The notes beneath the pieces are model-generated. The model saw only the letters and a program-made list of their open reading frames with translations, did not search any database and was not told the DNA's origin. A stretch of 64,000 bases of DNA from Patescibacteria group bacterium (lineage in GTDB: Bacteria > Patescibacteriota > JABMPQ01 > JAQVVF01): assembly GCA_041662665.1 (NCBI GenBank), contig JBAZSC010000004.1:10464-74463 (forward strand), read 5' to 3'. A program made the position numbers and the translations under genes. Each line of letters begins with the position of its first letter. Position 1 is the first letter of the stretch. Below are positions 3,603 to 56,225 of the stretch, piece after piece.

Positions 3603-3671
3603 AAAATATAAGTTAATAGAAAACAGAAAACAGAAACAACGACGACGTTACTGTTTCCTATTTTCTGTTTT

Positions 3672-4619
3672 CTAGAGCAGATAATTCTCTACTTTCACTT
3701 TATCAAATTTATTTAATCCACTCTTCGTCATTAATCCATTCTTTGCTCCAATTTTTTTCACAACTGATGATGCATTAGCAGTTGCTAATTGAATTGCATA
3801 ATTAACATCATTTTTAAAAAATAGTCCAGAAACAAATCCAGATCCAAAAGCATCTCCAGCACCAGTACTTTCAACAGCCTTACCTCCCATTGCCTTTGCT
3901 TTATAACAAGTTTTTCCGCTACAAGCTTCAACACCTTCCATTCCATTTGTAATTACTACTATTCCATCAGTCAAACTGTCTAATTTTTCAAAAATTTCTT
4001 TTGCATTTTTTAAACCAGTCAATTCTTTTGCTTCATCAAGATTTAAAATCAACACGCCAACTTTTGCTAAAAAAGGTTTTAAAGAAGTCATGCCTAATTT
4101 TATTTCCGAATTTCCAGGATTCCACGCAATTCTTATTTTTTTATCATTTGCACAATCAAAAATAGTTTTCAGAACTTTTACATTACCAGACAAAGAAGTA
4201 ATGTAAAACCATTTTGCATTAATTTTATTACATGGAATATCAGACTCTTTAAAATATTCACTTGTCCCTCGATGCACCAAAGCAACTCTGCCATTTTCAG
4301 TTGAAATAATAATTGAATAAGCTGTATATAGGTCTTTAGTTTCAGTAATAAATTGTGAACTAATCCCAAATTTTTTTAAATCTTCTAACACTGCCATACC
4401 TCCTGGATCATTTCCAATTCTACTAATACAAGCAGTATTCAATCCAAAATTTGAAAAAGTTGCTGCTGCATTAGTTGCTCCTCCGCCAGTAAAAAAGAAA
4501 ATCTCATCAACATCATTTTTTGATCCCAAATCAAAAGATAATTTATCTTTAGTTATAGGAAATTTTCCTTTCAAAAAAACATCGCGAGTCGCTGATCCAA
4601 TTGTAATTACATCAAACAT
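3672..4619 (-). CDS. PfkB-family carbohydrate/nucleoside kinase (ribokinase-like)
   Basis: N-terminal VITIGSATRDVF plus GGGATNAA, and C-terminal GAGDAFGSGF anion-hole motif of the PfkB family. Confidence 0.8.
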   Translation of the reverse strand: MFDVITIGSATRDVFLKGKFPITKDKLSFDLGSKNDVDEIFFFTGGGATNAAATFSNFGLNTACISRIGNDPGGMAVLEDLKKFGISSQFITETKDLYTAYSIIISTENGRVALVHRGTSEYFKESDIPCNKINAKWFYITSLSGNVKVLKTIFDCANDKKIRIAWNPGNSEIKLGMTSLKPFLAKVGVLILNLDEAKELTGLKNAKEIFEKLDSLTDGIVVITNGMEGVEACSGKTCYKAKAMGGKAVESTGAGDAFGSGFVSGLFFKNDVNYAIQLATANASSVVKKIGAKNGLMTKSGLNKFDKVKVENYLL

Positions 4620-17280: not shown

Positions 17281-18585
17281 TTATTTCTTAATCTTTTTTG
17301 TTATTCTCTCAACTGCCAAAGCATCAGCGCCCATTCTCAAGTCAACTTTATATTTTTCCGCCATTTTCCAAACATCAGCAAAAGATTTTTTAATTATCTT
17401 ATTTAATTTTCCGTTCACTTCGTCTAACTTCCAATACTTTCCATCCATATTTTGCAACCATTCAAAATATGAAACAGTCACACCACCTGCATTTGCCAAG
17501 ATATCTGGAATCACCACTTTTTTCTTTTTAAACAAAATTTTATCAGCATCAGGAGTTGTTGGACCATTTGCCATTTCTAAAATTATATTTGCTTTAATTT
17601 TATCAGCATTATCGGATGTTACTTGATTTTCAATTGCTGCTGGCACTAAAACATCAACATCTAATTCCAATAATTCAGCATTTGTAATCTTTTTTGTATC
17701 AGCCAATCCACTAACACTTCCAGTTTTCTTTTTCTGATTCATTATTTTTTCCAAATCAATTCCTTCTTTTTTAAATACACCGCTTCTAGAATCAGAAACA
17801 GCAACAATTGTAAATCTATTATCAGCAGATAAAATCTTGGCAATATAGTAGCCCACATTTCCCACGCCCTGTACCGCAACAGTCAGTTTTGTTTTAGTGT
17901 TTAAGTGTTTCGGTGTTTTTTTCAACGCTTCACATAGCGTAAAATATCCGCCCAAAGCAGTTGCTTCTGTTCTTCCCAAAGATCCGCCTTTTTTAATTGG
18001 TTTGCCAGTAAAAGTTCCCAACCATTCATTATCTTTAATTTTAAAATTTTTGCGTTTTTGTCCGCTTTTGTGCTTTTGTGGTTGCAGTTTTTTTATTGTC
18101 AATTTCTTAAACTCATCTGACATCCAAGCCATAATTTCCGGAGTTGTATTAACATCAGGTGCTGGAATATCTTTGTTTGGCCCAATACAATCAAAAATTG
18201 CTCGCACATATCCTCTTGATAGATTCTCCAATTCTTTTTTAGATAATTTTTTTGGATCAACAATTACTCCACCTTTTCCACCACCCAAAGGAATATTTGC
18301 AACTGCACATTTCATTGCCATCCAAAAAGACAATGCTTTTACCTCATAATCAGAAACTTCTTGATGGAATCTTATTCCGCCTTTGTACGGCCCTCTTGCA
18401 GAATTATATTGCATTCTAAATCCTTGAAACATTTTAATTTTTCCGTCAGCCATTTTAACTGGAAAATTAACATTAATTTCTCGTTCTGGTTTTGATAAAA
18501 TTTCTAAATAAGTTTTATCTAGTTTTATCAATTCAGCTACTCGTCCAAGCTGAGTTAGAGCATTCTCGAATACATTTTCTGGCAT
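17281..18585 (-). CDS. gdhA: Glutamate dehydrogenase (Glu/Leu/Phe/Val dehydrogenase family)
   Basis: GPYKGGIRFH and LGGGKGG motifs and a C-terminal NAD(P) Rossmann fold. Carries an in-frame low-complexity insert (KKLQPQKHKSGQKRKNFKIK) encoded by cttttgt oligo repeats near 18050-18110. Confidence 0.9.
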   Translation of the reverse strand: MPENVFENALTQLGRVAELIKLDKTYLEILSKPEREINVNFPVKMADGKIKMFQGFRMQYNSARGPYKGGIRFHQEVSDYEVKALSFWMAMKCAVANIPLGGGKGGVIVDPKKLSKKELENLSRGYVRAIFDCIGPNKDIPAPDVNTTPEIMAWMSDEFKKLTIKKLQPQKHKSGQKRKNFKIKDNEWLGTFTGKPIKKGGSLGRTEATALGGYFTLCEALKKTPKHLNTKTKLTVAVQGVGNVGYYIAKILSADNRFTIVAVSDSRSGVFKKEGIDLEKIMNQKKKTGSVSGLADTKKITNAELLELDVDVLVPAAIENQVTSDNADKIKANIILEMANGPTTPDADKILFKKKKVVIPDILANAGGVTVSYFEWLQNMDGKYWKLDEVNGKLNKIIKKSFADVWKMAEKYKVDLRMGADALAVERITKKIKK

Positions 18586-18652
18586 AATTTTATTTTAGTT
18601 TATTAGTTGATTAGTTTATTAGCAATTAGTTAACAATTAACAATGAAACAAT

Positions 18653-18847
18653 TTACTTCTTGTTGATCTCATCGATTATTTCTTTTATTTTTTTATCGTC
18701 TAAACCATGAGCCATACAACCTTGTTCAATTGTTTCACCATGCGCCATCAAGCAACCAACGCAAGGCAAACCATGCTTAACCAAAACATCAACAGTTTCT
18801 GGTTTTTCCTCAACTGCTTTACTAATTAAAGTATCTTTTGTGATCAT
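18653..18847 (-). CDS. Small redox protein, DUF1858-like (CxxC-containing)
   Basis: 64 aa with GLPCVGCLMA...GCMAHG Cys pairs; adjacent to the ferredoxin gene. Confidence 0.45.
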   Translation of the reverse strand: MITKDTLISKAVEEKPETVDVLVKHGLPCVGCLMAHGETIEQGCMAHGLDDKKIKEIIDEINKK

Positions 18848-18855
18848 AAAATAAA

Positions 18856-19056
18856 TTATAATTTTGTAATTTTAATACATTGCACTGGACATGCATCAGC
18901 AGCCTCTTGGTTACAACTAATTTCATCTACTTCTGGATTTTTTGGAAATGATTTATTATTTTCACCCTTTAATTCAAAATTTTCCGGACAAATTGTTGTG
19001 CAAGCACCACAGCTAATACATTTTTCTTGATCAATTTCGATTTTAAATTTCGCCAT
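18856..19056 (-). CDS. 4Fe-4S ferredoxin (single-cluster type)
   Basis: 66 aa with CISCGACTTICP plus CP C-terminal cysteines. Confidence 0.75.
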   Translation of the reverse strand: MAKFKIEIDQEKCISCGACTTICPENFELKGENNKSFPKNPEVDEISCNQEAADACPVQCIKITKL

Positions 19057-19075
19057 ATTTTTTTATTAAATAATA

Positions 19076-19101
19076 TAATACAAATATACAAATTTATGCA
19101 A
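19076..19101 (-). promoter_or_regulatory. Conserved promoter-like block (TTGCATAAATTYGTATATTTGTATTA) upstream of ferredoxin
   Basis: The reverse complement matches the block upstream of hsp20 and ruvB and lies 19 nt from the ATG. Confidence 0.45.
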
Positions 19102-19185
19102 ATGATACAAATTGCGAATACGTCGATTCGTAATTCGCAACATTCGTATTATTCGTATTCGCATTCGTATTATATTTTATGTTTT

Positions 19186-20355
19186 TTAAAAAGACAATTG
19201 CTTTAATTTCTCTAGCACCACTTTTTCCACATCCAACAAACTAATATTATCAAAATCAACTAAAATTAAGCCGTTCACTTTCTTACCCATAAAAATATCT
19301 CTGATTTTTTCTTTTGCTGAATCTTTATTGGTTTTGAAAATTGCTTTAACTCGTCCTTGCTGAAATTCATAAAAAATTATCACAATTTCTGCTAAATTCA
19401 CTGACATTGAAATTTCTTCTTCAACTCCCAAAATATCATTTTCTTCCTTTGATCCAGTCTTTTCAAAATCTTGATAATTAACTAATGTCCAAGCAATCTT
19501 TTTCGCATCATCAAATTTTACTCGAGCCAAAGCTCTGCCCCATAATTTCAAAGTTGATAATGATTTATTCTTAAAAATTGATTTAATAATTTTTTGCTGA
19601 TCTGCACCAAGCGCAATTAATTGCGCTGCAATTGTAAAAGATCTTGGTGTTGTTGTTGATGTTTGAAAACTCTTTGTTGATGACACGATTCCTGTCAACA
19701 AACAATTTGCAATTTCCTCATCAACTATTTTTTCGCCAAAAGATTCTAACAAAGTATACACAACTTCGGAAGTTGAAGAAGCTGTTACATCAACTAAATT
19801 CACTTCTCCATATTGCTCATTTGATGAACTGCTATCAATATTTATAATTGGAGTTTCATAAAATAATTCTGTATTTTCTTCATATATTTTTCCAAGCTTT
19901 TCTAAATCTGGAACATCAATACAAATTATCAAATTATATTTAAAACCAGAAGGTTTTGTTATCACATTGCTTGCATCATAATTTCCTTTTTCTGGAGTAA
20001 TATAAATATTTAATTTATTTCCATCCTCATCAAAATCATAAGAAAATTGAGCGACTTTTGCTTTTGATGTGTCTAATGTAATCACAAAATTCTTAGAGCC
20101 ATCAATTGTTTTTCCTAATTTAGAAATATTAGGCAAAAATGATAATGTCGAAGATATCGGTGCAGAACAAACCATATCAACTTCATGTCCGCCCATTTTT
20201 TCCAAAACTAAACCCAAGGAAAGCAAACTTCCAATCGAATCTTCATCAAAATCGGCCTTTGTTACTAATAAAATATTCTTGCTCTTTTTTATTAATTCAA
20301 AAATCTGTTGCTTAGATGATAATTCCATAAAATTTAAAAAAATTACAATATACAA
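19186..20355 (-). CDS. DHH-family phosphoesterase-like protein (NrnA-like architecture with degenerate catalytic motifs)
   Basis: The NrnA-like N-terminal layout is present but DxD/DHH are replaced (DEDSIG; no DHH), and a DHHA1-like C-terminus follows. The first about 9 codons lie in the inverted repeat at 20344-20452, so the start is probably the downstream ATG near 20328. Confidence 0.45.
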   Translation of the reverse strand: MYIVIFLNFMELSSKQQIFELIKKSKNILLVTKADFDEDSIGSLLSLGLVLEKMGGHEVDMVCSAPISSTLSFLPNISKLGKTIDGSKNFVITLDTSKAKVAQFSYDFDEDGNKLNIYITPEKGNYDASNVITKPSGFKYNLIICIDVPDLEKLGKIYEENTELFYETPIINIDSSSSNEQYGEVNLVDVTASSTSEVVYTLLESFGEKIVDEEIANCLLTGIVSSTKSFQTSTTTPRSFTIAAQLIALGADQQKIIKSIFKNKSLSTLKLWGRALARVKFDDAKKIAWTLVNYQDFEKTGSKEENDILGVEEEISMSVNLAEIVIIFYEFQQGRVKAIFKTNKDSAKEKIRDIFMGKKVNGLILVDFDNISLLDVEKVVLEKLKQLSF

Positions 20356-20452
20356 ATCTCAAATTCCAAACAAATACCAAATCACAATACACAAAGATTT
20401 TTGGAATTTGGAATTTGGAATTTGTTTGGGATTTGGAATTTGGGATTTTAAT
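20344..20452. repeat. Long inverted repeat, caaattccaaa family
   Basis: tacaaatctcaaattccaaacaaatacc... pairs with ...ttggaatttggaatttggaatttgtttgggatttggaatttggg. Confidence 0.7.
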
Positions 20453-20564
20453 AAGTAATTCTATAACTCCAAAAATAATCTGTCAAATGTGGATTATTTT
20501 GTTAATTTTTGTTATCATAAATTTAGTTTAAATTATAATAAATATTAATTAACACAGTTACTGA

Positions 20565-21023
20565 TTGCTAGTTACTAGTTACTTCAAAATGGAAATTATT
20601 TCTAAATCATCGCAACAAACACAAGATATCGCTCACAAACTTGCTCAACAATTAAATGGTGGCGAAATTTTATGTTTCTCTGGTGAATTAGGTGCCGGAA
20701 AGACCACTTTTATTCAAGGCCTAGCCAAAGGATTAGAAATCAAAGAAAATCTAACTAGCCCAACTTTTGTCATCTTCAAAAAATATCCTGCCAAAAACAA
20801 TCTCGAATTTTATCATTTTGATTTATACAGAATTCATGATCCACAAGAAATTTTAGATTTGGGCTATACCGAAATCATTAATAACAAAAAAAATATATCA
20901 GCAATAGAATGGTCAGAAAAAATTAAGGATCAAATTCCACTCAAAAATGTAATTCATATTAACTTAGAATATCTCGACAAAGATCAAAGAAAAATAATAA
21001 TCAACGAGAATAATGAATTATGA
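20565..21023 (+). CDS. tsaE: tRNA threonylcarbamoyladenosine biosynthesis ATPase TsaE
   Basis: GELGAGKTT P-loop and SPTF motif; about 150 aa. An alternative start at 20589 is possible. Confidence 0.8.
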   Translation: MLVTSYFKMEIISKSSQQTQDIAHKLAQQLNGGEILCFSGELGAGKTTFIQGLAKGLEIKENLTSPTFVIFKKYPAKNNLEFYHFDLYRIHDPQEILDLGYTEIINNKKNISAIEWSEKIKDQIPLKNVIHINLEYLDKDQRKIIINENNEL

Positions 21024-21162
21024 ATCAAGAATTATGATTAGAATTATGAATTACTGAATAACGATTTTTTTAATTTTCATAATTCTCAATTCAATATTCA
21101 AATCATCATTCATAATTCATCATTCATAATTCATAATTCATAATTCATAATTCATAATTCAC
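21010..21162. repeat. Imperfect inverted oligo-repeat (gaattatga / tcataattc words)
   Basis: gaattatgaatcaagaattatgattagaattatgaatt lies opposite (cataattcat)n x about 6. Confidence 0.6.
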
Positions 21163-21166
21163 GTCT

Positions 21167-21862
21167 ATGATTTATCTTTGGTACATTTTTGTCGCCTTAT
21201 TGCCAGGTTTATTCTGGCTCTGGTTTTATCGTCGAAAAGACAGACAAAATCCAGAACCATTAAAACAAATTTTCAAAATCTTTGTTTGGGGCATGGCTGC
21301 AACAATTCCTGCTATTGCTTTGGAATTCTCCGCTGATTTTTTTATTCCTTATGCTTCGTCAACAAAATATTTAGCCATGGTTTTAAGCTCATTTTTAATC
21401 GTCGCTCCGATTGAAGAATTTTTTAAATATTTAGTTTTAAAGCACAAAGCAGCAGAAAGCAAAGAATTCAACGAACCAATTGATGGAATTATTTATGGCA
21501 TTGTTGTTGGCTTAGGCTTTGCGACATTAGAAAACTTTTTGGTAACTTTAAGCGATGGCGGAACAGTTATTATTTTACGCTTTGCAACTGCTACTTTAAT
21601 GCATGCGATTTGTTCTGGTATCGTTGGTTATTATCTTGCTCGTCAAAAATTCCATCCTCAAGGCAACAAATCAAGCGTCATGAAAGGACTTTTCCTTGCC
21701 ATTTTTTTGCATGGCTTATACAATTCCGTCGCCTCTTACAATTCATCATATTCAATCATTTTGCTCGCTATTTTAATCATTGTCATGTATCTGATGCTTT
21801 CTCAAGATATTAAAGCCATAAAAAGATTAAAAATTACTGCTCAACAAAATAATCAAGAATAA
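21167..21862 (+). CDS. PrsW-family intramembrane metalloprotease
   Basis: Multi-TM protein with the EEFFKYL (EExxK), FATATLMH and HGLYN motifs of the PrsW family. Confidence 0.65.
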   Translation: MIYLWYIFVALLPGLFWLWFYRRKDRQNPEPLKQIFKIFVWGMAATIPAIALEFSADFFIPYASSTKYLAMVLSSFLIVAPIEEFFKYLVLKHKAAESKEFNEPIDGIIYGIVVGLGFATLENFLVTLSDGGTVIILRFATATLMHAICSGIVGYYLARQKFHPQGNKSSVMKGLFLAIFLHGLYNSVASYNSSYSIILLAILIIVMYLMLSQDIKAIKRLKITAQQNNQE

Positions 21863-21947
21863 TTCATTAGTACACCATTCGCAAACACTTGTCCACCGAA
21901 GTCCCGCAGGACGCAGGTGGATTCGAAAATTAATTAGAGTGTACAAC

Positions 21948-21982
21948 CAAAACTCCAAGAAATTTCCTGGAGTTTTTTTTGC
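21948..21982 (+). terminator. Rho-independent terminator after the prsW-like gene
   Basis: actccaagaaatttcctggagt followed by a T8 run. Confidence 0.6.
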
Positions 21983-22029
21983 CTGCACATTGCCAAGTCT
22001 CTGTATTCAATCTTTTAATCTTGAGTAGA

Positions 22030-24078
22030 TTATCTACCTATGGCATAATATCTTTCTGAAAAATCAAATGGAGAATTCAAATAAATCGTAAAAGTATTTT
22101 CTTTGTTATTTTGTCTGGCGTCTAAATCAGACCATTCTCTTAGTTCAACATCATATAATTTTAAATGCAAGTCGCTTTCTTTTAAGCCAGTCATTTTCTT
22201 TTTTAAAACTTTAAATTCTTTTTTAGTATAATAAAAAATCACTTTAATTTTAAAGCTATCAGACAATTGATTTAAATCAGTTGTTATCAACCAATTTTTT
22301 TTCAACAACATATTTTCTGCATTAACATAAGTTATTGGATATTTTTTAAATCTTTGCACTTGCCAATAATAATTATATTTTTTAAGACTCTTAGAATATT
22401 TCTTAAAAACAAAATCAAAATCATTAGCAAAATAATTATGGTTTTTTCCTTTAATCTTGACTGTTTTATCGTTTGCTTTCTTAGTTACAAATTTAGCTTT
22501 TTTAATTACATACTTTTTACTGACAACAGAAGATTGATTGCCAGCATTATCAATTGCCATAAATTTCAAAGTCATGTCTTTGGAAACAACAATTTTCTTG
22601 CTGTAAACATCGGAAGTTGTTTTTGGCTTCTTGCCATTAGTTGTATAATAAATTTTATCCACGCCAGAAAGAGCATCAGTTGCTGACAAAGCAACTTTTT
22701 TAATATTTTTATAAGTGCCTTTTTTTACTGATGCCAAAACTTCTGGAGCTGTCGCATCATAAACAATGCTGGCTGACACTGCTGCTGTTTCTGCATACCA
22801 AGTATCTCGAAATTTTGCATAAACAGTTTTTGTCCCCTCGCTAGCTGATAAAGTAAAAGACTGCGAAGTTCCATATGTCGTCCATGCTGATCCAAAAGAA
22901 CTGCTGTTTTCTGTTGTTGCCATTTCTAATGTATCGCTTGAAGAAGACAAACCAAGCGTTAAACTTGAAGAATTAGTGTAAGTTGCTCCAGAATTAATTA
23001 TTAATGCTGCTAAAGACGGACCAGGAGTATAGGTATAAACCAAACCAGTAGCAATATCATAATTACACACTTGCGACCGATTATTAGAATCAACATCAAT
23101 AGAAGTATAATAGCCAGAACTAGAAGCACCTATAGTATATGTCGCCCAAGAGCCAGACACATTAGTCGCATATTTCAAACCATTGCCAGAATAAGTAATT
23201 CTAACTTTATCATTAGAATCAATTGCCAAAGAATTATTTGATCCCACAGTGCCAGAACTGTCTAAAATTTGTACTGTCCCCCAAAAGCTGGGCCTACCAG
23301 TAATATACTTCAAATCATAACTTACATTATCAAAATAACAAATATGAACATTATCGCCGGAATCAACGCCAAGATCCATATGCGTAGAAGTATAGTCACC
23401 CATATCAACATCATCCAAAGTTTCTCTCACCCAACTCCCAGAAGAATTTGTTACAAATCGCAGATGATTATTAGTATCATCATAATAACTTATCTGCGGA
23501 TAGTTATTGGAATCTAACTCAATTGCTGTATATTTTCCCATATCAGTACTTGTATCATCAACCACTTCTGTGCTCCAAGAACCATAATGGCCTTTGGCAT
23601 ATTTCAAATCTTGTCCTGTTGAATAATAATAAGAAATATGCGCTTCGCTGTCAGATCCAACCGCAATTGAAGTGTACCTGCCTACAACACCAGTTGCATC
23701 TACCTGTTCCGTCTGCCATGATCCAGAAACATTAGTTGCATATTTCAAAGAAGTATTATCTGTATCATAATAACTGATATGCGCTTTATTATTAGAATCC
23801 AATGCTAATGAAGAATATCTACCAACATCGGGACCGCCAAAACCATCTACTATCTCGCTTGTCCAAGAACCAGTTAAATTATTGACATATACCAAATCTT
23901 CATCACCTATAGCATAATAACAAATATGAATTTTATCATTCGTATCAACTTTTAATTCAGTGTCTGTAATATTTGCTAATATCGTAATTGTACTCGCTGA
24001 CCAGTCAGCCGCTTTTACATTTTGCCCAACAAAAATTACACTAATTAAAATTAAAAATAACCACAAAATTTTTCGCAT
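22030..24078 (-). CDS. Secreted repeat protein, paralog 1 of 6: signal peptide, YATN-type propeller-like repeats, chitobiase-C-like module and lysine-rich C-terminal domain ending YYAIGR
   Basis: Signal peptide MRKILWLFLILISVIFVGQNVKAADW; repeats of about 46 aa (SLALDSNNKAHISYYD.TN..LKYATNVSGSW); a KIYYTTNGKKP...KFMAIDNAGN module; lysine-rich tail. Confidence 0.8.
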   Translation of the reverse strand: MRKILWLFLILISVIFVGQNVKAADWSASTITILANITDTELKVDTNDKIHICYYAIGDEDLVYVNNLTGSWTSEIVDGFGGPDVGRYSSLALDSNNKAHISYYDTDNTSLKYATNVSGSWQTEQVDATGVVGRYTSIAVGSDSEAHISYYYSTGQDLKYAKGHYGSWSTEVVDDTSTDMGKYTAIELDSNNYPQISYYDDTNNHLRFVTNSSGSWVRETLDDVDMGDYTSTHMDLGVDSGDNVHICYFDNVSYDLKYITGRPSFWGTVQILDSSGTVGSNNSLAIDSNDKVRITYSGNGLKYATNVSGSWATYTIGASSSGYYTSIDVDSNNRSQVCNYDIATGLVYTYTPGPSLAALIINSGATYTNSSSLTLGLSSSSDTLEMATTENSSSFGSAWTTYGTSQSFTLSASEGTKTVYAKFRDTWYAETAAVSASIVYDATAPEVLASVKKGTYKNIKKVALSATDALSGVDKIYYTTNGKKPKTTSDVYSKKIVVSKDMTLKFMAIDNAGNQSSVVSKKYVIKKAKFVTKKANDKTVKIKGKNHNYFANDFDFVFKKYSKSLKKYNYYWQVQRFKKYPITYVNAENMLLKKNWLITTDLNQLSDSFKIKVIFYYTKKEFKVLKKKMTGLKESDLHLKLYDVELREWSDLDARQNNKENTFTIYLNSPFDFSERYYAIGR

Positions 24079-24152: not shown

Positions 24153-26000
24153 TTATCTTCCGATTGCATAATATCTTTCCGAATAATTAAATGGCGAACT
24201 TAAATAAATCATAAAAGTATTTTTTTTAGTATTCGGCTTGACTTGCAAATCCGCCCATTCTCTTGATTCAGAATTATATAATTTTAGATAAAGATTTTTC
24301 TCTTTCAAACCTTTTACCTTTTTCTTTAAAGCCTTAAATTCTTTATTAGTATAAGAAAATACTAATTTTAATTTTACTGGTTTGCTAGAATTATATTTTT
24401 GATAATCAGTTTTAATTTTCCAATATTTCTTTATCAAATTATGCTTTGCGTCAACAAAAAGTTTCGTATACTTTTTTTGCCTCTCAACCAAAAAATATCT
24501 TTTTGTCTTTTTAAAACTTTTTGGAAATTTTTTGAAAGTCAAATTTAATTCTCTTGCATAATATTTTTTATTTTTTTTCTTGATTTTAACTTCATTCTTT
24601 TTCTTGGATTTTTTTGTTGTAAATTTTGGATTGCCAACATATTTAACAATTTGTGAAACAACATCTGATTCAGCATGCCAAGCATCTCTATATTTTACAT
24701 AAACAGTTTTCTTGCCTTTTTTTGCTGGCATTTTAAATGTCTTATCAGCCAAATAACTTTGCCAAGTTTTGTTTGAAAAATCAGATTTTGTTGACACAAT
24801 CATTTCGACCGGACTTTCAGTCAAAGAAGATGTAATATGAATTTTTCTATAAGCAGAATATTTACGTCCATAATTTATTTCTGTTATTTGATTTGAAGGA
24901 CCAGGAGTATTAGCAAGTTTTAATTTCTCGCTTGTCTGATCATAATATGCGATATAGGCTCTGTTTTTTGAATCCACATCCAAAGATGGATAACCAACAA
25001 CATCGCTGTCATTCAAAGTATTTTTTACAAAAGAATCAGTTACATTGCTCATATAGCCTATCCAATTTCCTCCTCCAACTGTTCCGCCATAATAACTTAA
25101 ACGAACCTTATTATCAGAATCTAAAGCTAAAGAATTATTAAATGCTGTAAAATCAGGCAAGATTTCACTATCCATATCGCTTATCGTCCAATTACTGTCT
25201 GCCGTTGTTTTAGTCGCATATTTAAGCGTCGTATTAGGATTAGCTAAATACAAATAAGCCAAATGTGCTGTATTATTGCTATCAAACTTCAAAGAATTAA
25301 AATAACCAGTTCTATAAGTACTATCAATCGCGCTCAATACCCAACTGCCGGAAACATTAGTCGCATATTTCAAATAATCATTTGTCCCTTCAAAATAAGC
25401 AATATGAACTTTATTATTAGAATCAATAGCCAGAGAATTAAACGTTCCACTATTATCAACCGTATCCAAAGTCTCATAAACCCAATCACCAGTAACATTA
25501 GTCGCATATTTCAAATGATCATTAGTACCATCATAATAAGCAATATGCGCCTTATTATTTGAATCCAAGGCTAAAGACGGATATGAACCAGCTTCAATTG
25601 TCGGATCTAAAATTGTTACTTGCCAAGAACCAGAAGCATTAGTCGCATACCGCAATTGATCTTCAATCATAGCATAATAAGCCAAATAAAAATTATTATT
25701 AGAATCAACTGCCGAAGAAATAAATAATCCTGCATAAAGAGTATCATCAACAGTCTGTTGCTCCCAAGCCCCAGAAGCATTTGTAGCATACTTTATTTTA
25801 TGATCAGTATTATCAAAATAACCAATATAAATCTTATCATTACTGCCAACTTTTAAAGAAACAACAGCCGCACCTTCTGACACCATTGGCACGTTTCCCA
25901 TATCAGCCACATCGCTAAAAACCCAATCAGCAGCCTTAACATTTTGGCCAAAAATAAACAAAGTAAAAACAACAATCAAAATTAACAATCCTTTTTTCAT
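24153..26000 (-). CDS. Secreted repeat protein, paralog 2 of 6
   Basis: Same architecture: signal peptide, 7 repeats, beta module after the TPGPS linker, and a lysine-rich C-terminal domain ending RYYAIGR. Confidence 0.8.
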   Translation of the reverse strand: MKKGLLILIVVFTLFIFGQNVKAADWVFSDVADMGNVPMVSEGAAVVSLKVGSNDKIYIGYFDNTDHKIKYATNASGAWEQQTVDDTLYAGLFISSAVDSNNNFYLAYYAMIEDQLRYATNASGSWQVTILDPTIEAGSYPSLALDSNNKAHIAYYDGTNDHLKYATNVTGDWVYETLDTVDNSGTFNSLAIDSNNKVHIAYFEGTNDYLKYATNVSGSWVLSAIDSTYRTGYFNSLKFDSNNTAHLAYLYLANPNTTLKYATKTTADSNWTISDMDSEILPDFTAFNNSLALDSDNKVRLSYYGGTVGGGNWIGYMSNVTDSFVKNTLNDSDVVGYPSLDVDSKNRAYIAYYDQTSEKLKLANTPGPSNQITEINYGRKYSAYRKIHITSSLTESPVEMIVSTKSDFSNKTWQSYLADKTFKMPAKKGKKTVYVKYRDAWHAESDVVSQIVKYVGNPKFTTKKSKKKNEVKIKKKNKKYYARELNLTFKKFPKSFKKTKRYFLVERQKKYTKLFVDAKHNLIKKYWKIKTDYQKYNSSKPVKLKLVFSYTNKEFKALKKKVKGLKEKNLYLKLYNSESREWADLQVKPNTKKNTFMIYLSSPFNYSERYYAIGR

Positions 26001-26050
26001 TATTTTATTTTAATTAACTTTTAACTTTAGATTTTAGACTTTTAACTCAC

Positions 26051-27895
26051 CTATCTGCCGATAGCATAATATCTTTCCGAATAATTAAATGGCGAATTTA
26101 GATAAATAATAAAAGTATGATTAGTTGTATCAGGTTTAACTTGTAAATCAGCCCAACTATCAGATTCAGAAACATAATATTTCAGATGCAAATTCTTTTC
26201 TTTTAATCCTTTAACTTTCTTTTTCAAAACTTTGAATTCATCGCTAGTATACTGAAATACTAATTTTAATCTAACTTGCTTGCTTCCTGTATATTTATTA
26301 AAGTCAGTATTTACTTTCCAATATTTTTTTAACAAATTGTGCTTTGCATCTGCAAAAAGTTTTGTGTATTTTAATTGTCTTTCAATTAGAAAATATCGCT
26401 TTGTATTTTTGAATTTAGTTGGATATTTTTTGAATTTAAGCTTTAGATCTCTTGCGTAATAAGTTTTATTCTTTTCTTTAACTTTCACTTCATTAGATTT
26501 CCTTGCTTTTTTTGTTACAAACTTTATTGGATTGCCAGTATATTTTACTTCTTGAGAAACAACATTAGATTCAGCATGCCAAATATCTCTGAATTTCATA
26601 TAAACAGTATTTTCACCTTTTTCTGATGGCATTCTAAATGTTGTATCAGCTGAATATGTTTTCCAAGTTTTATCTGAAAAATCAGATTTTGTTGAAACGA
26701 TCATTTCTGTTGGAGTTCCTGCAACTGTTGATTTTATATTAATATTTCTTGTTGCTGAATAATTTCTACCATTATTTATTTCAGAAGAAGTGATACTTGG
26801 ACCAGGAGTGAAAGCATAATTCAAATCATTATCAGTAGTATTATAATATGAAATATGAATACGATTATTTGAATCTACGTCAAGTGAAATTTGATTATAG
26901 TATCCAAATAATACCACTATGTATGATCCAACATTATCAATCACATTATATGTCCATGACCCTGAAGTATTAGTTGCATACTTTAATTGTTGCTCAGTAA
27001 CATCATAATAACCAATATGTACACCATTATTGTTATCAACAGCTATCGAAGTATTATATCCTGCTTGATTTGCCGTATCCAAATTCGTTGCAACCCAAAC
27101 ACCAGTAGAATTAGTAATGTATTTCAAATCTAAATTTGTAGCATCTAAATAACTAATATGGATGCTATTGTTAGTCCCAATCGCCAAAGAAGAATACCAT
27201 CCAGCCTCAACTGAATTATCTAAAGTACTTGTTGACCAAACACCAGACAAACTATTCGTCGCATATTTTAGAGTACTATTAGTTTCATCACGATAACTAA
27301 TATGCGCAAACCCATTTGAATCAATACCAAGCGAATTAAAAATGCCCACATCACCAACTGAATCAACTGTTGTCAACACCCAAGAACCGGTTGCATTAGT
27401 TGCATATTTTAAATCACTATTAGTTGAATCATAATAGCTAATTTGAACCGCATTATTTGCATTCAATACTATTGATGTATTATTTATATCAAAAATACCT
27501 ACTGTAATAGTACCTGAATTATCAACAGTTGTAGCAACCCAAGAACCAGAAGCATTTGTGGCATATTTCAAATTACTATTAGTATCATCAATATAACTAA
27601 TATGAGATTTGTTATTACTATCAATTGCTATTGAAACACCTTCGCCTACGTTTCCTGCACTATCTACAGTTGTAATAGCCCACGAACCTGACTCATTTGT
27701 TATATATTTCAAATCATTAGTACCAACTTCAAAATAAGCAATATGCACAAAGCCATTATGATCAACAGCAATCGCATTATCAGCGCCAGTATTTACAGCA
27801 TCGATTGAAGATTTCTGCCAATCCGCAGCCTTCACATTTTGGCCAAAGATAAACAAACCAACAATGGCCAGACAAATTAATAAATACTTCCGCAT
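26051..27895 (-). CDS. Secreted repeat protein, paralog 3 of 6
   Basis: Same architecture; ends RYYAIGR. Confidence 0.8.
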   Translation of the reverse strand: MRKYLLICLAIVGLFIFGQNVKAADWQKSSIDAVNTGADNAIAVDHNGFVHIAYFEVGTNDLKYITNESGSWAITTVDSAGNVGEGVSIAIDSNNKSHISYIDDTNSNLKYATNASGSWVATTVDNSGTITVGIFDINNTSIVLNANNAVQISYYDSTNSDLKYATNATGSWVLTTVDSVGDVGIFNSLGIDSNGFAHISYRDETNSTLKYATNSLSGVWSTSTLDNSVEAGWYSSLAIGTNNSIHISYLDATNLDLKYITNSTGVWVATNLDTANQAGYNTSIAVDNNNGVHIGYYDVTEQQLKYATNTSGSWTYNVIDNVGSYIVVLFGYYNQISLDVDSNNRIHISYYNTTDNDLNYAFTPGPSITSSEINNGRNYSATRNINIKSTVAGTPTEMIVSTKSDFSDKTWKTYSADTTFRMPSEKGENTVYMKFRDIWHAESNVVSQEVKYTGNPIKFVTKKARKSNEVKVKEKNKTYYARDLKLKFKKYPTKFKNTKRYFLIERQLKYTKLFADAKHNLLKKYWKVNTDFNKYTGSKQVRLKLVFQYTSDEFKVLKKKVKGLKEKNLHLKYYVSESDSWADLQVKPDTTNHTFIIYLNSPFNYSERYYAIGR

Positions 27896-33614: not shown

Positions 33615-33796
33615 TATTTTTGTTTTTTATTTTAATAAATTTTAATTACTGATATCTTAACATTTTTTTACCTATTTAACAAAAAAGCTATCCACTGCCA
33701 AAATTTACATTATGCCAATAATAATGTATAATAAAATTAATCAAATATCATTTTTAAAAACAGAATTAAAATTAGAAAAAGTATTTGCATTATTTG

Positions 33797-33836
33797 CATA
33801 TTCGCAATATTTGCATAAATTCGTATATTTGTATTA
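33797..33836 (+). promoter_or_regulatory. Conserved about 40-nt promoter-like block ending at the hsp20 start codon (candidate leaderless promoter: TTCGCA-17-TATATT)
   Basis: catattcgcaatatttgcataaattcgtatatttgtatta is near-identical (1 mismatch) to the block upstream of ruvB and is related to the block upstream of ferredoxin. Confidence 0.5.
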
Positions 33837-35248: not shown

Positions 35249-35272
35249 ACCTACTCTCGTAGGTTTTTTTAT
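35249..35272 (+). terminator. Terminator after the cupin gene
   Basis: cctactctcgtagg followed by a T7 run. Confidence 0.55.
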
Positions 35273-35333
35273 TTCAATATTCAAATCATAATTCTTTATT
35301 CTTTATTCATAATTCTCATGCTAGAATAATTTA

Positions 35334-37073: not shown

Positions 37074-37189
37074 ACAAGAATACAAATCTACAAATAACGC
37101 TAATCTACGAATATACGAATCGTCGTATTCGCATATTCGCTATATTGGCATTATTCGTATATTCGTATTTTACCCAACAAAAAACTGTA

Positions 37190-37330: not shown

Positions 37331-37465
37331 TTTTGGCCACGAAAAACATTACTTTTTTTTCATGACTAAACAGCTTAGCATATTATATTTCGCCTGTCAA
37401 TACTTTTTGCTATAATATAATACGAATATGCAAATCTATGCAAATAATACGAATATACAAATTCG

Positions 37466-37505
37466 TATATTCGCAACATTTGCATAAATTCGTATATTTG
37501 TATTA
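37466..37505 (+). promoter_or_regulatory. Conserved about 40-nt promoter-like block upstream of ruvB
   Basis: gtatattcgcaacatttgcataaattcgtatatttgtatta ends 5 nt before the ATG at 37511. Confidence 0.5.
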
Positions 37506-39395: not shown

Positions 39396-39518
39396 TTTGG
39401 CAGAAGAATCTTGAATCTAGAATTTGGAATCTAGAATGAATAATGAATTTAGAATACAGAATTCTCGATTCTAAATTCCAAATTCTATTCCAGATTCTAG
39501 ATTCCAGATTCTATATTC
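39396..39518. repeat. Inverted oligo-repeat element (gaatctagaat words)
   Basis: ttgaatctagaatttggaatctagaatg is paired with cagattctagattccagattctat. Confidence 0.6.
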
Positions 39519-44101: not shown

Positions 44102-45469
44102 TCAATTTTCTTTTTCCGTTTTCAATTTTGTAATAATCATCAAAGCAATAATCAACCAAAATAAAATTGACAAATCATTTTTAAAATACGGCACATCAAC
44201 AATACCATGCATAATTATACAAACCATCGCACCCATCAAAGCAATTTCCAATTTCCAATTTCCAATTTCCAATTCTCCCATCCCAGTTTGTAATTTGTTG
44301 TTTGTAATTTGTTTGTTTTTTTGTTCTTTTGTTTTTTTGTTTTTTTCAAAACCTTGCCAAAAGAATAAAACTAAAATCCAAACAAAAGAAATTAATCCGA
44401 GCACCCCCGTCTCCACCCAAAAATTCAAAATAATATTATGCGGATAAACTAAAATTTCAGTATGCTTATTTAATTTATAATTTGGATAAGCTTTTTGAAA
44501 TCCAGCTAAACCAGCTCCAAAAATTGGATTTGCTTTTATTAAATTCCATGTTCCTTCCCAAAGAACAAGTCTCACATCGCCTGAAGTTTCTTGAAAAGTA
44601 ATAATTGGCACCACTTTTTTTGAAGTTACTGGAACTATCAAAATAGAAATTATCGAAACAATCGCCAGTCCAACCACCCACCATCTGAATTTCGTAAACA
44701 TCAGCATAAAAAACAATCCGATCAAAATTCCAAAAATCGCACCCTTAGACACAGCCAAGACAACTGCTATTACTCCTGCTAAAACAACCAAACAATAAAA
44801 CAATAAAACAAAAATCGACACAATTTGTTTTCTTGTTTTATTGTTTTCTTGTTTCATGCCGACAATCAACCCACTAAACAATACAACTATTGGTGCGACA
44901 TATAAACCGATCGCATTTGGATAATCAAACACGCTCGTTGCTCGTTTTAAATTTGGCAAATTATAATCTACTGGAATATTAATATTAAAAATGTATTGAA
45001 TAATCGCATAAACAGAAATAACTAATGATGACAAACCTAATGCCCACAAAATTAAATTTAATTGCTTTTTAGATCTTAAGACATCAAGCAAAATTAAAAA
45101 AACTAAAATTGGTTCTACAAAATATGCTCTAAATCTTCCCAAAGCATGTTTAAAATCAGCCGAAACAAAAACTGAAATTATCGCAGCCAGCAAAAATAAC
45201 AAAATTGGCAACCACCATTTTTTCAACAGTTCTCGCCAATTCGCAACAGTCTGCTTTATCTCTTTATTTAAAATCTTCTTAACAACAAAAATTAGAGTTA
45301 AAACTAATACCATCAATTCCAAAAATGTTGACGGCAATGGCCCAAGATTAAATCTCAACAAATACAATGGCATGGCAAAGACAACTAGACTTAATCCAAT
45401 ATCAACTCTTCGCCAACAAATAATGGCGTAAATAATCAATAGTGAAAATACAATAATTATGTTTAACAT
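44102..45469 (-). CDS. O-antigen ligase / Wzy-like polytopic membrane protein with an in-frame repeat insert
   Basis: 10-12 TM helices in Wzy_C-like topology. The repeat at 44243-44310 is translated in frame as KQITNNKLQTGMGELEIGNWKLEI. Confidence 0.55.
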   Translation of the reverse strand: MLNIIIVFSLLIIYAIICWRRVDIGLSLVVFAMPLYLLRFNLGPLPSTFLELMVLVLTLIFVVKKILNKEIKQTVANWRELLKKWWLPILLFLLAAIISVFVSADFKHALGRFRAYFVEPILVFLILLDVLRSKKQLNLILWALGLSSLVISVYAIIQYIFNINIPVDYNLPNLKRATSVFDYPNAIGLYVAPIVVLFSGLIVGMKQENNKTRKQIVSIFVLLFYCLVVLAGVIAVVLAVSKGAIFGILIGLFFMLMFTKFRWWVVGLAIVSIISILIVPVTSKKVVPIITFQETSGDVRLVLWEGTWNLIKANPIFGAGLAGFQKAYPNYKLNKHTEILVYPHNIILNFWVETGVLGLISFVWILVLFFWQGFEKNKKTKEQKNKQITNNKLQTGMGELEIGNWKLEIALMGAMVCIIMHGIVDVPYFKNDLSILFWLIIALMIITKLKTEKEN

Positions 45470-45518: not shown

Positions 45519-45626
45519 CCTAAACAAATTCAAAACTCAAATTTCAAATTCCAAAACATTGACGACGAGTTTTGAAAATTTTGATTTTGAGCATTTAGAT
45601 TTGTTTAGAATTTAGGATTTAGGATT
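45519..45626. repeat. Long inverted repeat (caaattcaaaa / tttggaattt-type words)
   Basis: Left arm cctaaacaaattcaaaactcaaatttcaaattccaaaac pairs with right arm gagttttgaaaattttgattttgagcatttagatttgtttagaatttaggatttagg. Confidence 0.65.
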
Positions 45627-48139: not shown

Positions 48140-48146
48140 AGTAATT

Positions 48147-48258
48147 AAATCTCAAATTACAAACAAATCTCAAATCACAAAGATACAAACTTTAAATCCT
48201 ATTTTGTAATTTGTCTTTTGTAATTTGTTTGGAATTTGGAATTTGGAATTTTCGTAAC
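48147..48258. repeat. Long inverted repeat, caaattccaaa family, overlapping the 3' end of the 48192-49766 gene
   Basis: Left arm ctcaaattacaaacaaatctcaaatcacaaag; right arm gtaatttgtcttttgtaatttgtttggaatttggaatttggaatt. Confidence 0.7.
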
Positions 48259-53884: not shown

Positions 53885-53962
53885 ACGTGAATTAAGAATC
53901 ATGAATTAAGAATTATGAATTTTATCATAATTCTTGATTCTTTATTCATGATTCTCGTGGCT
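53885..53962. repeat. Inverted oligo-repeat (gaattaagaatcatgaatt / aattcttgattctttattcatgattc)
   Basis: Related to the words at 21010-21162 and 35270-35330. Confidence 0.55.
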
Positions 53963-54446
53963 TAATTACTATTTTTCTATTCGGATCTTCGCCAATACTT
54001 TCTGTACAAACTAGCTCATTATTTGCCAAACACATATGAACAACTCTCCGCTCATAAGCAGTCATTGGTCTTAATACGATTTCTTTGTTAATTCGAACTA
54101 CTTTTTCCGCAGTATCCAAAGCTATCTTTTTTAAATATTCTTCTTTTTCTTGGCGATAATTATTCACATCAATGTAGAATGGAATTTCAGAAACGCTATT
54201 TTTTCTTTTTAAAAATACTTTTGCTAAATGTTGAATTGCAAATAAATTGCAGCCTCGCTGTCCAATCAAATAATTTGCATCATCAGCCTCAATATTCAAA
54301 CAAACAATTTCCTTTCCTTCTTTTTCGTCAATTCGAGCATTTGTCTTTCCATTGATTCCCATTTTCAGAATTAAATCTTCAACTACTCCTTTTACCTCCT
54401 CGATACTTGTTGCATTGATTTCATTCATATGTTTTAAAATAATCAA
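53946..54446 (-). CDS. jag: Jag/KhpB-type R3H RNA-binding protein
   Basis: KH-like domain plus R3H (LIGQRGCNL...; YERRVVH). Located downstream of yidC. Confidence 0.75.
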   Translation of the reverse strand: MIILKHMNEINATSIEEVKGVVEDLILKMGINGKTNARIDEKEGKEIVCLNIEADDANYLIGQRGCNLFAIQHLAKVFLKRKNSVSEIPFYIDVNNYRQEKEEYLKKIALDTAEKVVRINKEIVLRPMTAYERRVVHMCLANNELVCTESIGEDPNRKIVIKPRES

Positions 54447-54585
54447 TAATCAATTACCAATAATCAATAAATAATCAATTTCCAATAACTAAATAATCAA
54501 TAAAATCGTCGCAATTTTGATTATTAAATTATTGGTTATTGGTTTTTTACTGATTATTGAAATTTGATTATTGGTTATTTAAGCC
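54440..54585. repeat. Inverted oligo-repeat (aataatcaat / attgattatt words)
   Basis: aataatcaataatcaattaccaataatcaataaataatcaatttcc... lies opposite ...ttgattattaaattattggttattgg. Confidence 0.6.
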
Positions 54586-55302: not shown

Positions 55303-55416
55303 AAATTACAAATCCCAAAATCCAAACAAATCCCAAATAACAAATTACAAAATATCTTTTGTGGTTTGTAATTTGGAATTTGTAATTTGTTTGGTATTTG
55401 AAATTTGGAATTTCAC
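55303..55416. repeat. Long inverted repeat, caaattccaaa family, overlapping the 3' end of yidD
   Basis: Left arm aaattacaaatcccaaaatccaaacaaatcccaaataacaaattacaaa; right arm tggtttgtaatttggaatttgtaatttgtttggtatttgaaatttggaatttc. Confidence 0.7.
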
Positions 55417-55671
55417 AGGTACGTTATCCACTCCGCCATGACTCCACGGATTACATCTTAACACACGCCAGCCAGCCAACAAAGAGCCTTTAAAAATTCC
55501 ATGTTTTTCAATTGCTTGATATCCATATTCTGAACAAGTCGGATGATATTTGCAAACACCATAAGGAAGATAATTAGATATTAAGCCATGATCAGGAGAA
55601 ATGGTTTTCTGATAAACTTTAATCAAAAGCAATAATGGCAATCTAAATATATACATAAATACAATTATCAA
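55345..55671 (-). CDS. yidD: Membrane protein insertion efficiency factor YidD, with a repeat-encoded C-terminal tail
   Basis: ISPDHGLI...[17 protein letters not shown]...RCNPWSHGG core. The C-terminal 23 aa ([23 protein letters not shown]) lie within the inverted repeat. Confidence 0.75.
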
Positions 55672-55790
55672 TTCACAATTACCAATTTACAATCAATTAA
55701 TCAATGATCAATAATCAATTTTCGACGAAGTTTTGTAAATTGTAAATTAGTAAATTTATTGAAAATTGATAATTGGTAATTGAAAATTAA
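55655..55790. repeat. Inverted oligo-repeat (caattatcaat / attgataattg words)
   Basis: caattatcaattcacaattaccaatttacaatcaattaatcaatgatcaataatcaatt lies opposite aaattgataattggtaattgaaaatt. Confidence 0.55.
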
Positions 55791-56131: not shown

Positions 56132-56225
56132 TATCTTAGTTCTAAAAGTTATAAAGTTATAAAGTTCGTAAAGTCCGTAACTTTATAAACTTTATAACTT
56201 TATGAACAGCACGAACTAACGCAAA

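Follow-up and report, generated by a model that had tools for sequence, protein, structure and literature searches.

The intergenic DNA of a 64-kb stretch of a small, metagenome-assembled Patescibacteria group genome (contig JBAZSC010000004.1, positions 10,464 to 74,463; the window hereafter means this whole stretch of 64,000 nucleotides) is built in large part from tandem arrays of 7-8-nt words, mostly arranged as long inverted repeats that form hairpins between a stop codon and the next start codon. We give a probability of about 0.5 to the reading that these are arrays of the short tandemly repeated repetitive (STRR) kind, grown by slippage and inverted templated copying, and tolerated or used at start codons that lack a Shine-Dalgarno (SD) motif. 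Under this reading, the arrays have come to occupy most stop-to-start spacers in this Patescibacteria lineage.

Word arrays exceed chance in the intergenic DNA of the window

The window is gene-dense, with ~30% G+C, and we counted ~16 word hairpins and at least 10 word families in it. The self-similarity of intergenic DNA is maximal at lags of 7 and 8 nt (0.376 and 0.361, compared with a background of ~0.31), while coding DNA shows period 3 only. Tandem arrays cover 25.7% of the 5,916 intergenic nucleotides, compared with 2.1% in dinucleotide shuffles and 3.0% of coding nucleotides, a strong intergenic enrichment; 19 intergenic arrays have period 7 or 8, where the shuffles predict 0.3. Furthermore, gap folding gives z-scores below −2 in 35 of 42 gaps and below −4 in 26 of 42. 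Tandem Repeats Finder (TRF), arm complementarity and folding against shuffles confirm a preliminary description of this DNA, which held that intergenic gaps are made of repeated words set as inverted repeats. Every locus listed there carries the word given for it, and the proposed check of periodicity and palindromes, run across the window, returned the lag peaks, the array excess and fold z-scores beyond those of shuffles. The accompanying statement that each locus is an imperfect palindrome holds for most of the listed loci, but 35270-35330 and 33780-33840 are one-armed arrays.

The lag-7/8 signal is present in the window, in near relatives (L003-L010) and in L020, and no such excess was found in other Patescibacteria loci of 22-33% G+C or in Actinomycetota controls. 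The shuffles, together with the other AT-rich Patescibacteria that lack the excess, rule out chance in AT-rich DNA. Three other assemblies (JGI 3300014208, SRR18595301 and ERZ27249449) match the window sequence wherever they overlap it, indicating that the arrays are real DNA and, over the covered parts, ruling out an assembly artefact. Short-read contigs terminate within a CAAATTCC-family hairpin, indicating that the arrays are repetitive enough to break assemblies. One ERZ27249449 contig (L091, 990-1039) is identical to the window up to a CAAATTCC-family arm and then runs into unrelated sequence, probably owing to a mis-join through another repeat copy.

A long hairpin fills the gap between tsaE and prsW

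The genes tsaE (20565-21023, +) and prsW (21167-21862, +) flank a hairpin with arms of repeated GAATTAT and TTCATAA, which has the following parts:

21004..21059: 5′ A/G-rich arm, ~7.6 units of GAATTAT (TRF array at 21008-21059), overlapping the tsaE end (final 20 nt and stop codon); from TRF, complementarity and fold
21060..21075: hairpin centre, ctgaataaCGatttttttaatt; from the fold
21076..21164: 3′ T/C-rich arm, 12.6 units of TTCATAA (TRF array at 21076-21161), terminating 2 nt 5′ of the prsW ATG (21167)

The two arms are mutually complementary over 43-46 nt at 72-74%, with sub-arms of 24-30 nt at 87-92%. As DNA, the segment 21004-21166 folds into a single long hairpin of −29.1 kcal/mol (z −5.9), and as RNA it reaches −41.5 kcal/mol (z −6.7); in both cases, 0 of 200 shuffles equal the native value.

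The 3′ arm contains in-phase, promoter-like TTCATA-17-CATAAT matches, and for this locus only it is conceivable that (TTCATAA)n forms stacked σ70 promoters phased by the word itself, one every 7 nt, the last of which would yield a nearly leaderless prsW mRNA. Four in-phase matches of 9/12 lie at 21109-21171, the right phase follows arithmetically from the TTCATAA word, and viral (AATTCAT)n arrays often comprise ~4 units and, at 29 nt, match a promoter in length. However, the match is weak (4/6 in the −35 box), the right phase occurs in 1 of ~20 words tested and in ~5% of random AT-rich heptamers, and the property is missing from the words that relatives carry 5′ of prsW. We consider a promoter stack highly improbable even here, and we reject promoter arrays as a general explanation because only TTCATAA has the right phase.

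Hairpins run from stop codon to start codon with a constant polarity

The 5′ arm is A-rich in all 16 hairpins (summed A 363, T 176) and the 3′ arm is T-rich in 14 of 16, counts that, like the 14-60 pairs per stem, are based in part on wrong arm bounds from the stem-walking script, which supplied bounds, composition and pair counts and errs in branched folds. Specifically, at 19072-19176 the script mistook a side hairpin (loop 'atacaa', 14 pairs) for the centre, whereas the fold centres on aCGTCGa, and its loops for 21004-21164 and 55670-55788 likewise disagree with the fold centres. Because a palindrome is equal on both strands, A-rich sequence follows stops and T-rich sequence precedes starts in every gene orientation. 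By hand tally and after start correction, 13 of 15 intergenic hairpins end 0-20 nt (median ~9) 5′ of the start codon, and the upstream stop codon is positioned at the hairpin base or within the hairpin in 7 of 11 intercistronic cases. Among one-armed arrays, T exceeds A in 14 and not in 5 near starts, and A equals or exceeds T in 13 and not in 8 near stops. Where a gap holds both a canonical terminator and an array (35247-35333 and 39347-39526), the order is always stop, terminator, word array, start.

An SD-like motif precedes 0 of 16 array-preceded genes and at most 15 of 42 other genes in a lenient test, a comparison built on heuristic start codons and small numbers. SD-like motifs are rare window-wide, and some genes have a strong AAGGAGG, for example before 62349, 58954 and 50261. 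The longest-ORF (open reading frame) starts at 10869, 39443, 54446, 55671 and 33785, often TTG, run into hairpin arms and are false; the corrected starts are 10905 for tsaD, 39527 for queA, ~54428 for jag, ~55656 for yidD and ~33838 for hsp20. Automatic annotation of such genomes would tend towards over-extended N-termini.

The pentamer CG(A/T)CG marks many hairpin centres: 6-7 of its 10 intergenic occurrences lie no more than 10 nt from a centre (six computed; the seventh, at 19121, by eye). Pairing shows no strand bias, with 30 G-U pairs on the sense strand and 34 on the antisense strand, and energies of −511 and −533 kcal/mol, respectively; the palindromy therefore looks like a property of the DNA.

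The other word hairpins and one-armed arrays of the window are as follows:

53885..53958: TGAATTA/AGAATCA hairpin of the tsaE-prsW family, between jag and a PRC-barrel gene; 45 nt 91% identical to 21128-21172; jag stop codon within the 5′ arm, 3′ arm stopping 2 nt 5′ of the ATG
35270..35320 (+): one-armed T-rich array of the tsaE-prsW family, 3′ of the canonical terminator 35250-35270 and 5′ of the vanW-like ATG at 35334
19072..19176: ATTCGTAT/ATACGAAT family hairpin, centre aCGTCGa, 5′ of a ferredoxin-like ORF
37079..37169: ATTCGTAT family hairpin, centre CGTCG
37418..37505: ATTCGTAT family hairpin, 5 nt 5′ of the ruvB ATG; right arm matching 33798-33836 with 97% identity over 39 nt
33782..33836 (+): one-armed ATTCGTAT family array, a copy of the right arm, adjoining the Hsp20 gene start
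39405..39512: AGAATCT/GATTCTA hairpin, 3′ of the canonical terminator 39365-39392 and 14 nt before the true queA ATG at 39527
54437..54580: AATAATCAA/TTGATTATT hairpin in the yidC-jag gap, with 58 bp and centre CGTCGC
55670..55788: CAATTAC/AATCAAT hairpin, centre CGACGA, between rnpA and yidD
56139..56207: ATAAAGTT/AACTTTAT hairpin in the rpmH-rnpA gap
55303..55413: CAAATTCC-family hairpin; yidD ORF continuing across the 5′ arm and loop, with a longer C-terminus as a result; orthologous hairpin in relative L010
10791..10895: CAAATTCC-family hairpin, 9 nt 5′ of the true tsaD ATG at 10905
20353..20442: CAAATTCC-family hairpin in the 5′ untranslated region of a DHH gene, downstream of the conserved promoter 20486-20458 (−)
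45520..45608: CAAATTCC/TTTAGGA-family hairpin, centre CGACGA
48143..48250: CAAATTCC-family hairpin; stop codon of the upstream ORF at the loop, 3′ arm ending 3 nt 5′ of the following ATG; 95% identity to phage contig L095 over 41 nt
3617..3674: AGAAAAC/CTGTTTT hairpin, centre CGACGACG
44782..44854 (−): TAAAACAA/TTGTTTTC hairpin, in frame within an O-antigen-ligase-like ORF (44102-45469)

Words are shared between loci

The word families are multi-copy, with 2-5 members in 64 kb, and their members have 29-49 nt in common at 88-97% identity, including non-periodic landmarks. Specifically, the tsaE-prsW family (21004-21164, 35270-35320 and 53885-53958) has TTCAATATTCAAATCAT and AATTCACGTYTATGAT in common, the array at 35270..35320 sharing TTCAATATTCAAATCAT with 21090-21107. 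The ATTCGTAT family is linked by a 39-nt right arm at 97% identity, and a metagenome scan detected two further copies of this arm outside the window, each directly 5′ of an ATG, one of them that of smpB. Genome-wide dispersal of the arm was not seen: its 26-nt signature occurs three exact times in 241 million metagenome records, indicating a low copy number. The CAAATTCC family (five copies) has CCAAACAAAT/ATTTGTTTGG in common with the orthologous L010 hairpin. Its conservation is limited to a ~22-nt core per arm, with no whole-element consensus, and compensatory CG↔UA changes are found in 3 of 31 pairs.

The proposal that each locus generates its words purely locally agrees with the gain, loss and expansion in place described below, but its corollary, that words are private to a locus, conflicts with the shared stretches and landmarks that link loci. 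Sequence comparison points to an origin of both kinds, by change in place and by copying between loci.

Orthologous gaps of relatives differ in array content

In the rpmH-rnpA-yidD-yidC-jag-PRC cluster, the window's hairpins of 63-132 nt correspond in the relative L009 (93% YidC identity) to gaps of only 2-9 nt or to a short hairpin. The rnpA-yidD gap is 9 nt in L009 and is occupied by the 55670..55788 hairpin in the window, while the yidC-jag gap carries AATAATCAA-like words in all three genomes, with stems ranging from 11 bp (L009) to 58 bp (window). At two gaps of the conserved cluster, the hairpins of the third genome, L010, are made of other words. Five relatives carry different 7-nt words 5′ of prsW, each abutting the ATG; in L003-L006 the array position is kept and the words differ. 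The DHH-family gene has a TTGACA-17-TAGAAT promoter at 20458-20486 (−), with a 'tctgtcaa' block conserved in relatives L003 and L006. Between promoter and start, the window has gained the full 90-nt hairpin, and L003 has only a 32-nt T-rich leader.

The preliminary description anticipated rapid turnover among closely related strains. Turnover is evident at the orthologous gaps of relatives, in L009, in L010 and in the words upstream of prsW, but not between strains: contigs from other samples that cover arrays are identical to the window and show no length polymorphism, and these contigs are clonal and so uninformative on rates.

Arrays inside genes

The O-antigen-ligase-like ORF (44102-45469, −) contains in frame the 73-nt word hairpin 44782-44854. 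Translation of its A-rich arm gives a loop rich in K, Q, N and E, and that of its T-rich arm a hydrophobic segment. The ORF holds another translated array at 44242-44346. In the L009 and L010 orthologues, protein lengths and peptides differ at exactly these two loops, and distant homologues have short loops at both positions. The loop peptides (of proteins P0241-P0246) read as translated arrays, including KFQIPNSK, the translation of (AAATTCC)n, and ELEIGNWKLEI. Furthermore, yidD and other ORFs are lengthened at their 3′ ends by hairpin arms. The loops, hypervariable among close relatives, show repeat-driven creation of new protein segments.

Similar arrays occur in phages and viral contigs

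The CAAATTCC landmark is also present in L095, an IMG/VR contig of 53% G+C that carries an HK97 capsid gene, and in its relatives L116 and L118-L120. The closest named proteins of this phage group are from metagenome-assembled genomes of Dehalococcoidia, and the landmark-bearing contigs have 53-58% G+C. If not convergence, the landmark would indicate a route of DNA exchange across phyla. Some members of the group carry hairpins in the space from a stop codon to the capsid-gene SD, others lack them, and a comparison of L147 with L146 gives a clean filled and empty site without target duplication. Another phage contig, L096, carries (TTTGGAA)12.

Among viral sequences in IMG/VR, (TTCATAA)3 occurs in 94 stretches (L175-L268) of 20-60% G+C. 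One of them, L259, carries a perfect (AATTATG)3-T7-(CATAATT)3 hairpin, and in another, L226 (50% G+C), an array ends 3 nt 5′ of an ATG. Arrays in phages and viruses of such a wide range of G+C indicate that the phenomenon is not bound to genomes that are reduced or poor in repair. The suggested link to such a genome is not needed in any case, as similar arrays are reported from large Xanthomonas, Nostoc and Beggiatoaceae genomes (PMC4692102, PMC4679880) and are missing from other Patescibacteria that are reduced and AT-rich.

Some further features of these contigs were observed. In the Dehalococcoidia phage and prophage group as a whole (L095, L098-L151 and L171, from IMG/VR and ENA; 53-60% G+C), period 7 is the commonest, with 45 arrays of many words. 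Some members have AT-rich word hairpins 5′ of the capsid SD and others have G+C-rich hairpins, and many of the word hairpins end with a CTCC-nnn-GGAG mini-hairpin over the SD. Several of the (TTCATAA) viral contigs contain 3-6 arrays, typically of ~4 units, on both strands at gene boundaries.

Word hairpins are distinct from terminators and known repeat classes

Canonical terminators, with a short G+C-rich stem and a T run, lie near 6140, 15160, 17250, 39365, 49860, 53253 and 57600 and are distinct from the word hairpins. A terminator-pattern scan of 53000-56600 and 18500-22100 flagged one of the six word hairpins there, at 53903-53940 on the antisense strand; the other 10 of 16 lie outside the scanned segments. 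We therefore reject ordinary rho-independent terminators, because canonical ones are separate, sometimes in the same gap, and the sole scan match is antisense. The preliminary description had set its reading against ordinary terminators showing no excess over random AT-rich sequence, and both the separate canonical terminators and the excess over shuffles uphold it.

A scan of the window against Rfam 15 returned only two tRNAs at or above the gathering threshold, and at E≤1 the word hairpins match only microRNA-precursor models, far below threshold. The units are 7-8 nt and contiguous, unlike the 24-48-nt repeats with unique spacers of a CRISPR array. At 58-160 nt, AT-rich and variable, the elements are unlike repetitive extragenic palindromes (REP) or bacterial interspersed mosaic elements (BIME), which are conserved G+C-rich palindromes of 20-40 nt. 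No target-site duplications or fixed termini were found at filled/empty comparisons (orthologous gaps; L147 and L146), and words and unit numbers vary, in agreement with the earlier view that these are not copies of one miniature transposable element with inverted repeats (MITE). No transposase was identified in the window. Binding of CsrA, which recognizes GGA, fits the GGAA/AGGA words only and was set aside.

Traits of three known classes are nevertheless present. As in Rickettsia palindromic elements (RPE), palindromic repeats lie in frame in the ORF 44102-45469 and extend yidD at its 3′ end. As in TAACTGA-type arrays, the arrays end near a start codon (3′ arm 0-20 nt) of genes with SD motifs in 0 of 16 cases. 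Finally, as in heptameric simple sequence repeats (SSRs) and STRRs, the units are 7 nt (also 8 nt) and head-to-tail, enriched between genes and variable between relatives at the same gap. Members of that class typically have one or a few words per genome, whereas the window has at least 10 word families in 64 kb; we therefore call its arrays a variant of heptameric SSR/STRR arrays.

Proposed mechanism and alternative explanations

In the mechanism we favour, the primary unit would be a T-rich array at the ribosome-binding position of an SD-less gene, a position that is kept among relatives while the word changes. Polymerase slippage would then lengthen or shorten the array by one word at a time, as suggested by the unequal copy numbers of the two arms and the length differences between relatives. 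Fold-back intramolecular template switching could make an inverted copy upstream, on the sole side where it would be tolerated, and such upstream copying would yield the constant order of stop, A-rich arm, centre, T-rich arm and start. Slippage and arm-to-arm templated correction may homogenise the words of a locus, giving each its own 'dialect' with complementary arms; a few compensatory changes were seen. Whole or half elements would in addition be copied between loci, as the shared landmarks show, and perhaps between genomes. An effect on expression would be secondary: with both arms on one transcript, the upstream stop and the downstream start would be positioned at the two sides of the stem base, the hairpin would bury the SD-less leader, and upstream translation could unmask the next start, potentially resulting in translational coupling; stem-loops in 5′ untranslated regions are a further candidate effect.

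Several points weigh against this reading. No mutational step was observed directly, and all of the mechanistic steps are inferred; the assemblies from other samples, identical over the covered regions, give no sign of ongoing slippage. Neither the 7-8-nt period nor the CG(A/T)CG centres have an explanation in the model, and the landmark in G+C-rich phages is easier to reconcile with horizontal spread or a sequence-specific function than with drift. The SD comparison has the limits given above, and the analysis rests on 64 kb of a larger genome.

Purely local slippage in each gap of a reduced genome without repair, with no copying between loci and no function, would explain why words and lengths differ at orthologous gaps of close relatives, why copy number is unequal between the arms of one hairpin, and why the yidC-jag gap keeps AATAATCAA-like words in three relatives with stems of 11-58 bp. 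It would not explain the 29-49-nt matches with non-periodic landmarks across loci, the ATTCGTAT right-arm copies before other genes outside the window, or a landmark in phage contigs of 53-58% G+C; random slippage would not be expected to give a constant A-to-T polarity or CG(A/T)CG centres, and the other reduced, AT-rich Patescibacteria without an excess, like the arrays of large genomes (PMC4692102), count further against it. We find it quite unlikely. The copying between loci might instead reflect non-autonomous mobile cassettes resembling MITEs, RPEs or SPRITEs, inserted between genes and in frame and moving horizontally, also in phages. Multi-copy families, presence and absence at orthologous sites, AT-rich elements with the window's landmark in G+C-rich Dehalococcoidia phage genomes, in-frame copies and ORF 3′ extensions of the kind known for RPE and other small repeats (PMC3184786), and short-read assemblies that break at the elements all speak for movement. 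Yet none of the filled/empty comparisons has a target-site duplication or fixed termini, word number and sequence vary far more than among MITE copies, half elements are common, the copy number is low (the 26-nt signature occurs 3 times in 241 million records), and the window has no identified transposase; we consider mobile cassettes an unlikely explanation.

Selection at the RNA level is a further alternative, with stem-loops that would terminate, stabilise or process transcripts, or arrays that would bind S1, Csp or CsrA at SD-less starts. The ribosome-binding position is kept across relatives and SD motifs are missing there, the hairpin 20353-20442 begins a few nt after a conserved promoter, an A-to-U polarity suits a bidirectional terminator, and phage-group relatives carry G+C-rich hairpins at the same place, before the capsid SD; precedents are the nifH transcript-stabilising stem-loops (PMC4284476) and the translational role proposed for TAACTGA arrays (PMC4679880). 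Against this stand the lack of a sense-strand bias in G-U pairs or energy, the single, antisense match to the terminator pattern among six scanned hairpins, one hairpin inside a coding region and no match to an Rfam family. Furthermore, L009 lacks full hairpins in the conserved rpmH-rnpA-yidD-yidC-jag operon, indicating that the hairpins are dispensable, and at 53181-53318 a terminator and a promoter lie between the arms, so that the arms cannot pair in one RNA. We regard RNA-level selection as doubtful. A bolder variant, which we hold to be very doubtful, takes the palindromes not as junk but as a sequence-flexible intercistronic cassette shared with phages of other phyla, in which the juxtaposition of stop and SD-less start at the stem base would replace SD initiation, by termination-reinitiation or by unmasking of a factor-binding U-rich heptamer array, and CG(A/T)CG would be a recognition or nucleation site for the process by which the cassette is made or copied.

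Other repeats and segments of the window

A second repeat class, unrelated to the word hairpins, comprises G+C-rich palindromes at 401-440, 15045-15150, 21880-21915, 29820-29855, 31690-31735, 51468-51725 and 63171-63290, for example tccaccgaagtcccgcaggacgcaggtgga and two copies of the tgtcatcctgaaccgcagtgaaggat... element; analogous 'gtcattgcgag...ctcgcaatgac' elements fill gaps of the Dehalococcoidia prophage L171. Between two ATTCGTAT hairpins, ~155 nt (37186-37340, +) are closed by a ctgtaggc...gcctacag stem followed by a T run; this region contains no ORF, matches nothing in Rfam at E≤1 and may be an undescribed small RNA. The segment 40570-44100 is richer in G+C (38-39%) and has four ORFs without a Pfam match, arrays of the octamer GACGCTCC (40594-40619, 41384-41423 and 42476-42548) and a 39-nt terminator-shaped repeat present at 40622-40660 and 41420-41458 with 95% identity; it may be acquired DNA. 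Finally, five tandem paralogous ORFs of 603-616 aa (24153-33614, −), with short spacers that differ in word content, adjoin a 682-aa protein with CHB_HEX_C/Fn3_assoc domains (22030-24078); the one paralogue tested had no Pfam match.

Comparison with known repeat systems

The class to which the arrays belong is known but mechanistically unsolved; the window adds a phylum to it and shows an unusual degree of organisation. In the literature searched, no report of such repeats in Patescibacteria, also known as the Candidate Phyla Radiation, was found. The STRR sequences of cyanobacteria were reportedly described by Mazel et al. in 1990. They consist of heptanucleotides repeated in tandem, with more than one word in a genome. 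Through them the intergenic regions of close relatives become 'highly variable but structured', and copies can also occur within genes, including an RNA gene. The window resembles them in its tandem heptamers, its several words per genome, its variable intergenic regions and its within-gene copies; STRRs were described in the large genomes of heterocystous cyanobacteria, whereas the window is from Patescibacteria. We know of no prior STRR description of the stop, A-arm, T-arm, start layout or of CG(A/T)CG centres. Heptamer arrays have been noted since 1990 with their origin and function unexplained, and the window is a compact, extreme case, in which a regular layout, many dialects, and gains and losses in relatives make slippage versus mobility, and junk versus translational signal, directly testable. 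There are also practical effects, namely broken short-read Patescibacteria assemblies, false long ORF starts (tsaD, queA, jag and yidD) and added low-complexity protein segments.

Two characterised repeats are close in different respects. Heptameric SSRs are over-represented in the intergenic DNA of Xanthomonas, as (GGGAATC)n, and Nostoc, as (GGGGAYT)n, with 70-75 convergent heptamer pairs able to form stem-loops in Xanthomonas; length and sequence vary between close relatives, the single or inverted-pair type is usually kept, and a polymerase-footprint slippage hypothesis has been put forward (Rehm et al. 2015, PMC4692102). Period 7, intergenic enrichment and inverted pairs are common to both, and their unit resembles GGAATTT/GGGATTT of the window. 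However, in those SSRs each genome has a single G-rich word, examined for its ability to form G-quadruplexes, whereas the window has many AT-rich words, also 8-mers, without G-quadruplex potential, near-completely occupied stop-to-start spacers and arms that are far longer (reaching 12 units, with 14-60 predicted pairs per stem, a count unreliable for branched folds). The TAACTGA arrays of Beggiatoaceae, cyanobacteria and Bacteroidetes lie a few nt 5′ of starts and overlap the ribosome-binding site of genes in which SD motifs are rare; some are inside ORFs, their patchy phylogenetic spread suggests horizontal transfer, and S1, Csp or CsrA are proposed binders (MacGregor 2015, PMC4679880). The window shares the position over the ribosome-binding site of SD-less genes and the occurrence within ORFs, but TAACTGA arrays have a single word in 2-6 copies, almost always direct (one indirect repeat is reported), in contrast to the diverse words and mostly long palindromes found here.

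More distant parallels exist. RPE and other small palindromic repeats (SPRITE, Correia and REP) insert in frame in genes (review PMC3184786), and RPEs resemble the window's elements as ~100-nt hairpin-forming intergenic repeats of a reduced genome, with in-frame copies and ORF 3′ extensions; RPE and MITE copies have a fixed consensus and no internal 7-8-nt period, whereas here word and unit number vary and no target-site duplication was found. Borg tandem repeats are pervasive, fast-evolving and locally arising, and create low-complexity protein segments (PMC9879509). Local origin and new low-complexity protein segments are shared, but Borg repeats are direct, have many unit lengths, belong to archaeal extrachromosomal elements and are neither palindromic nor heptameric. 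Compared with these systems, the window is set apart by its many AT-rich words, 8-mers among them, by stop-to-start spacers that are nearly saturated, by the polarity rule and by the CG(A/T)CG centres.

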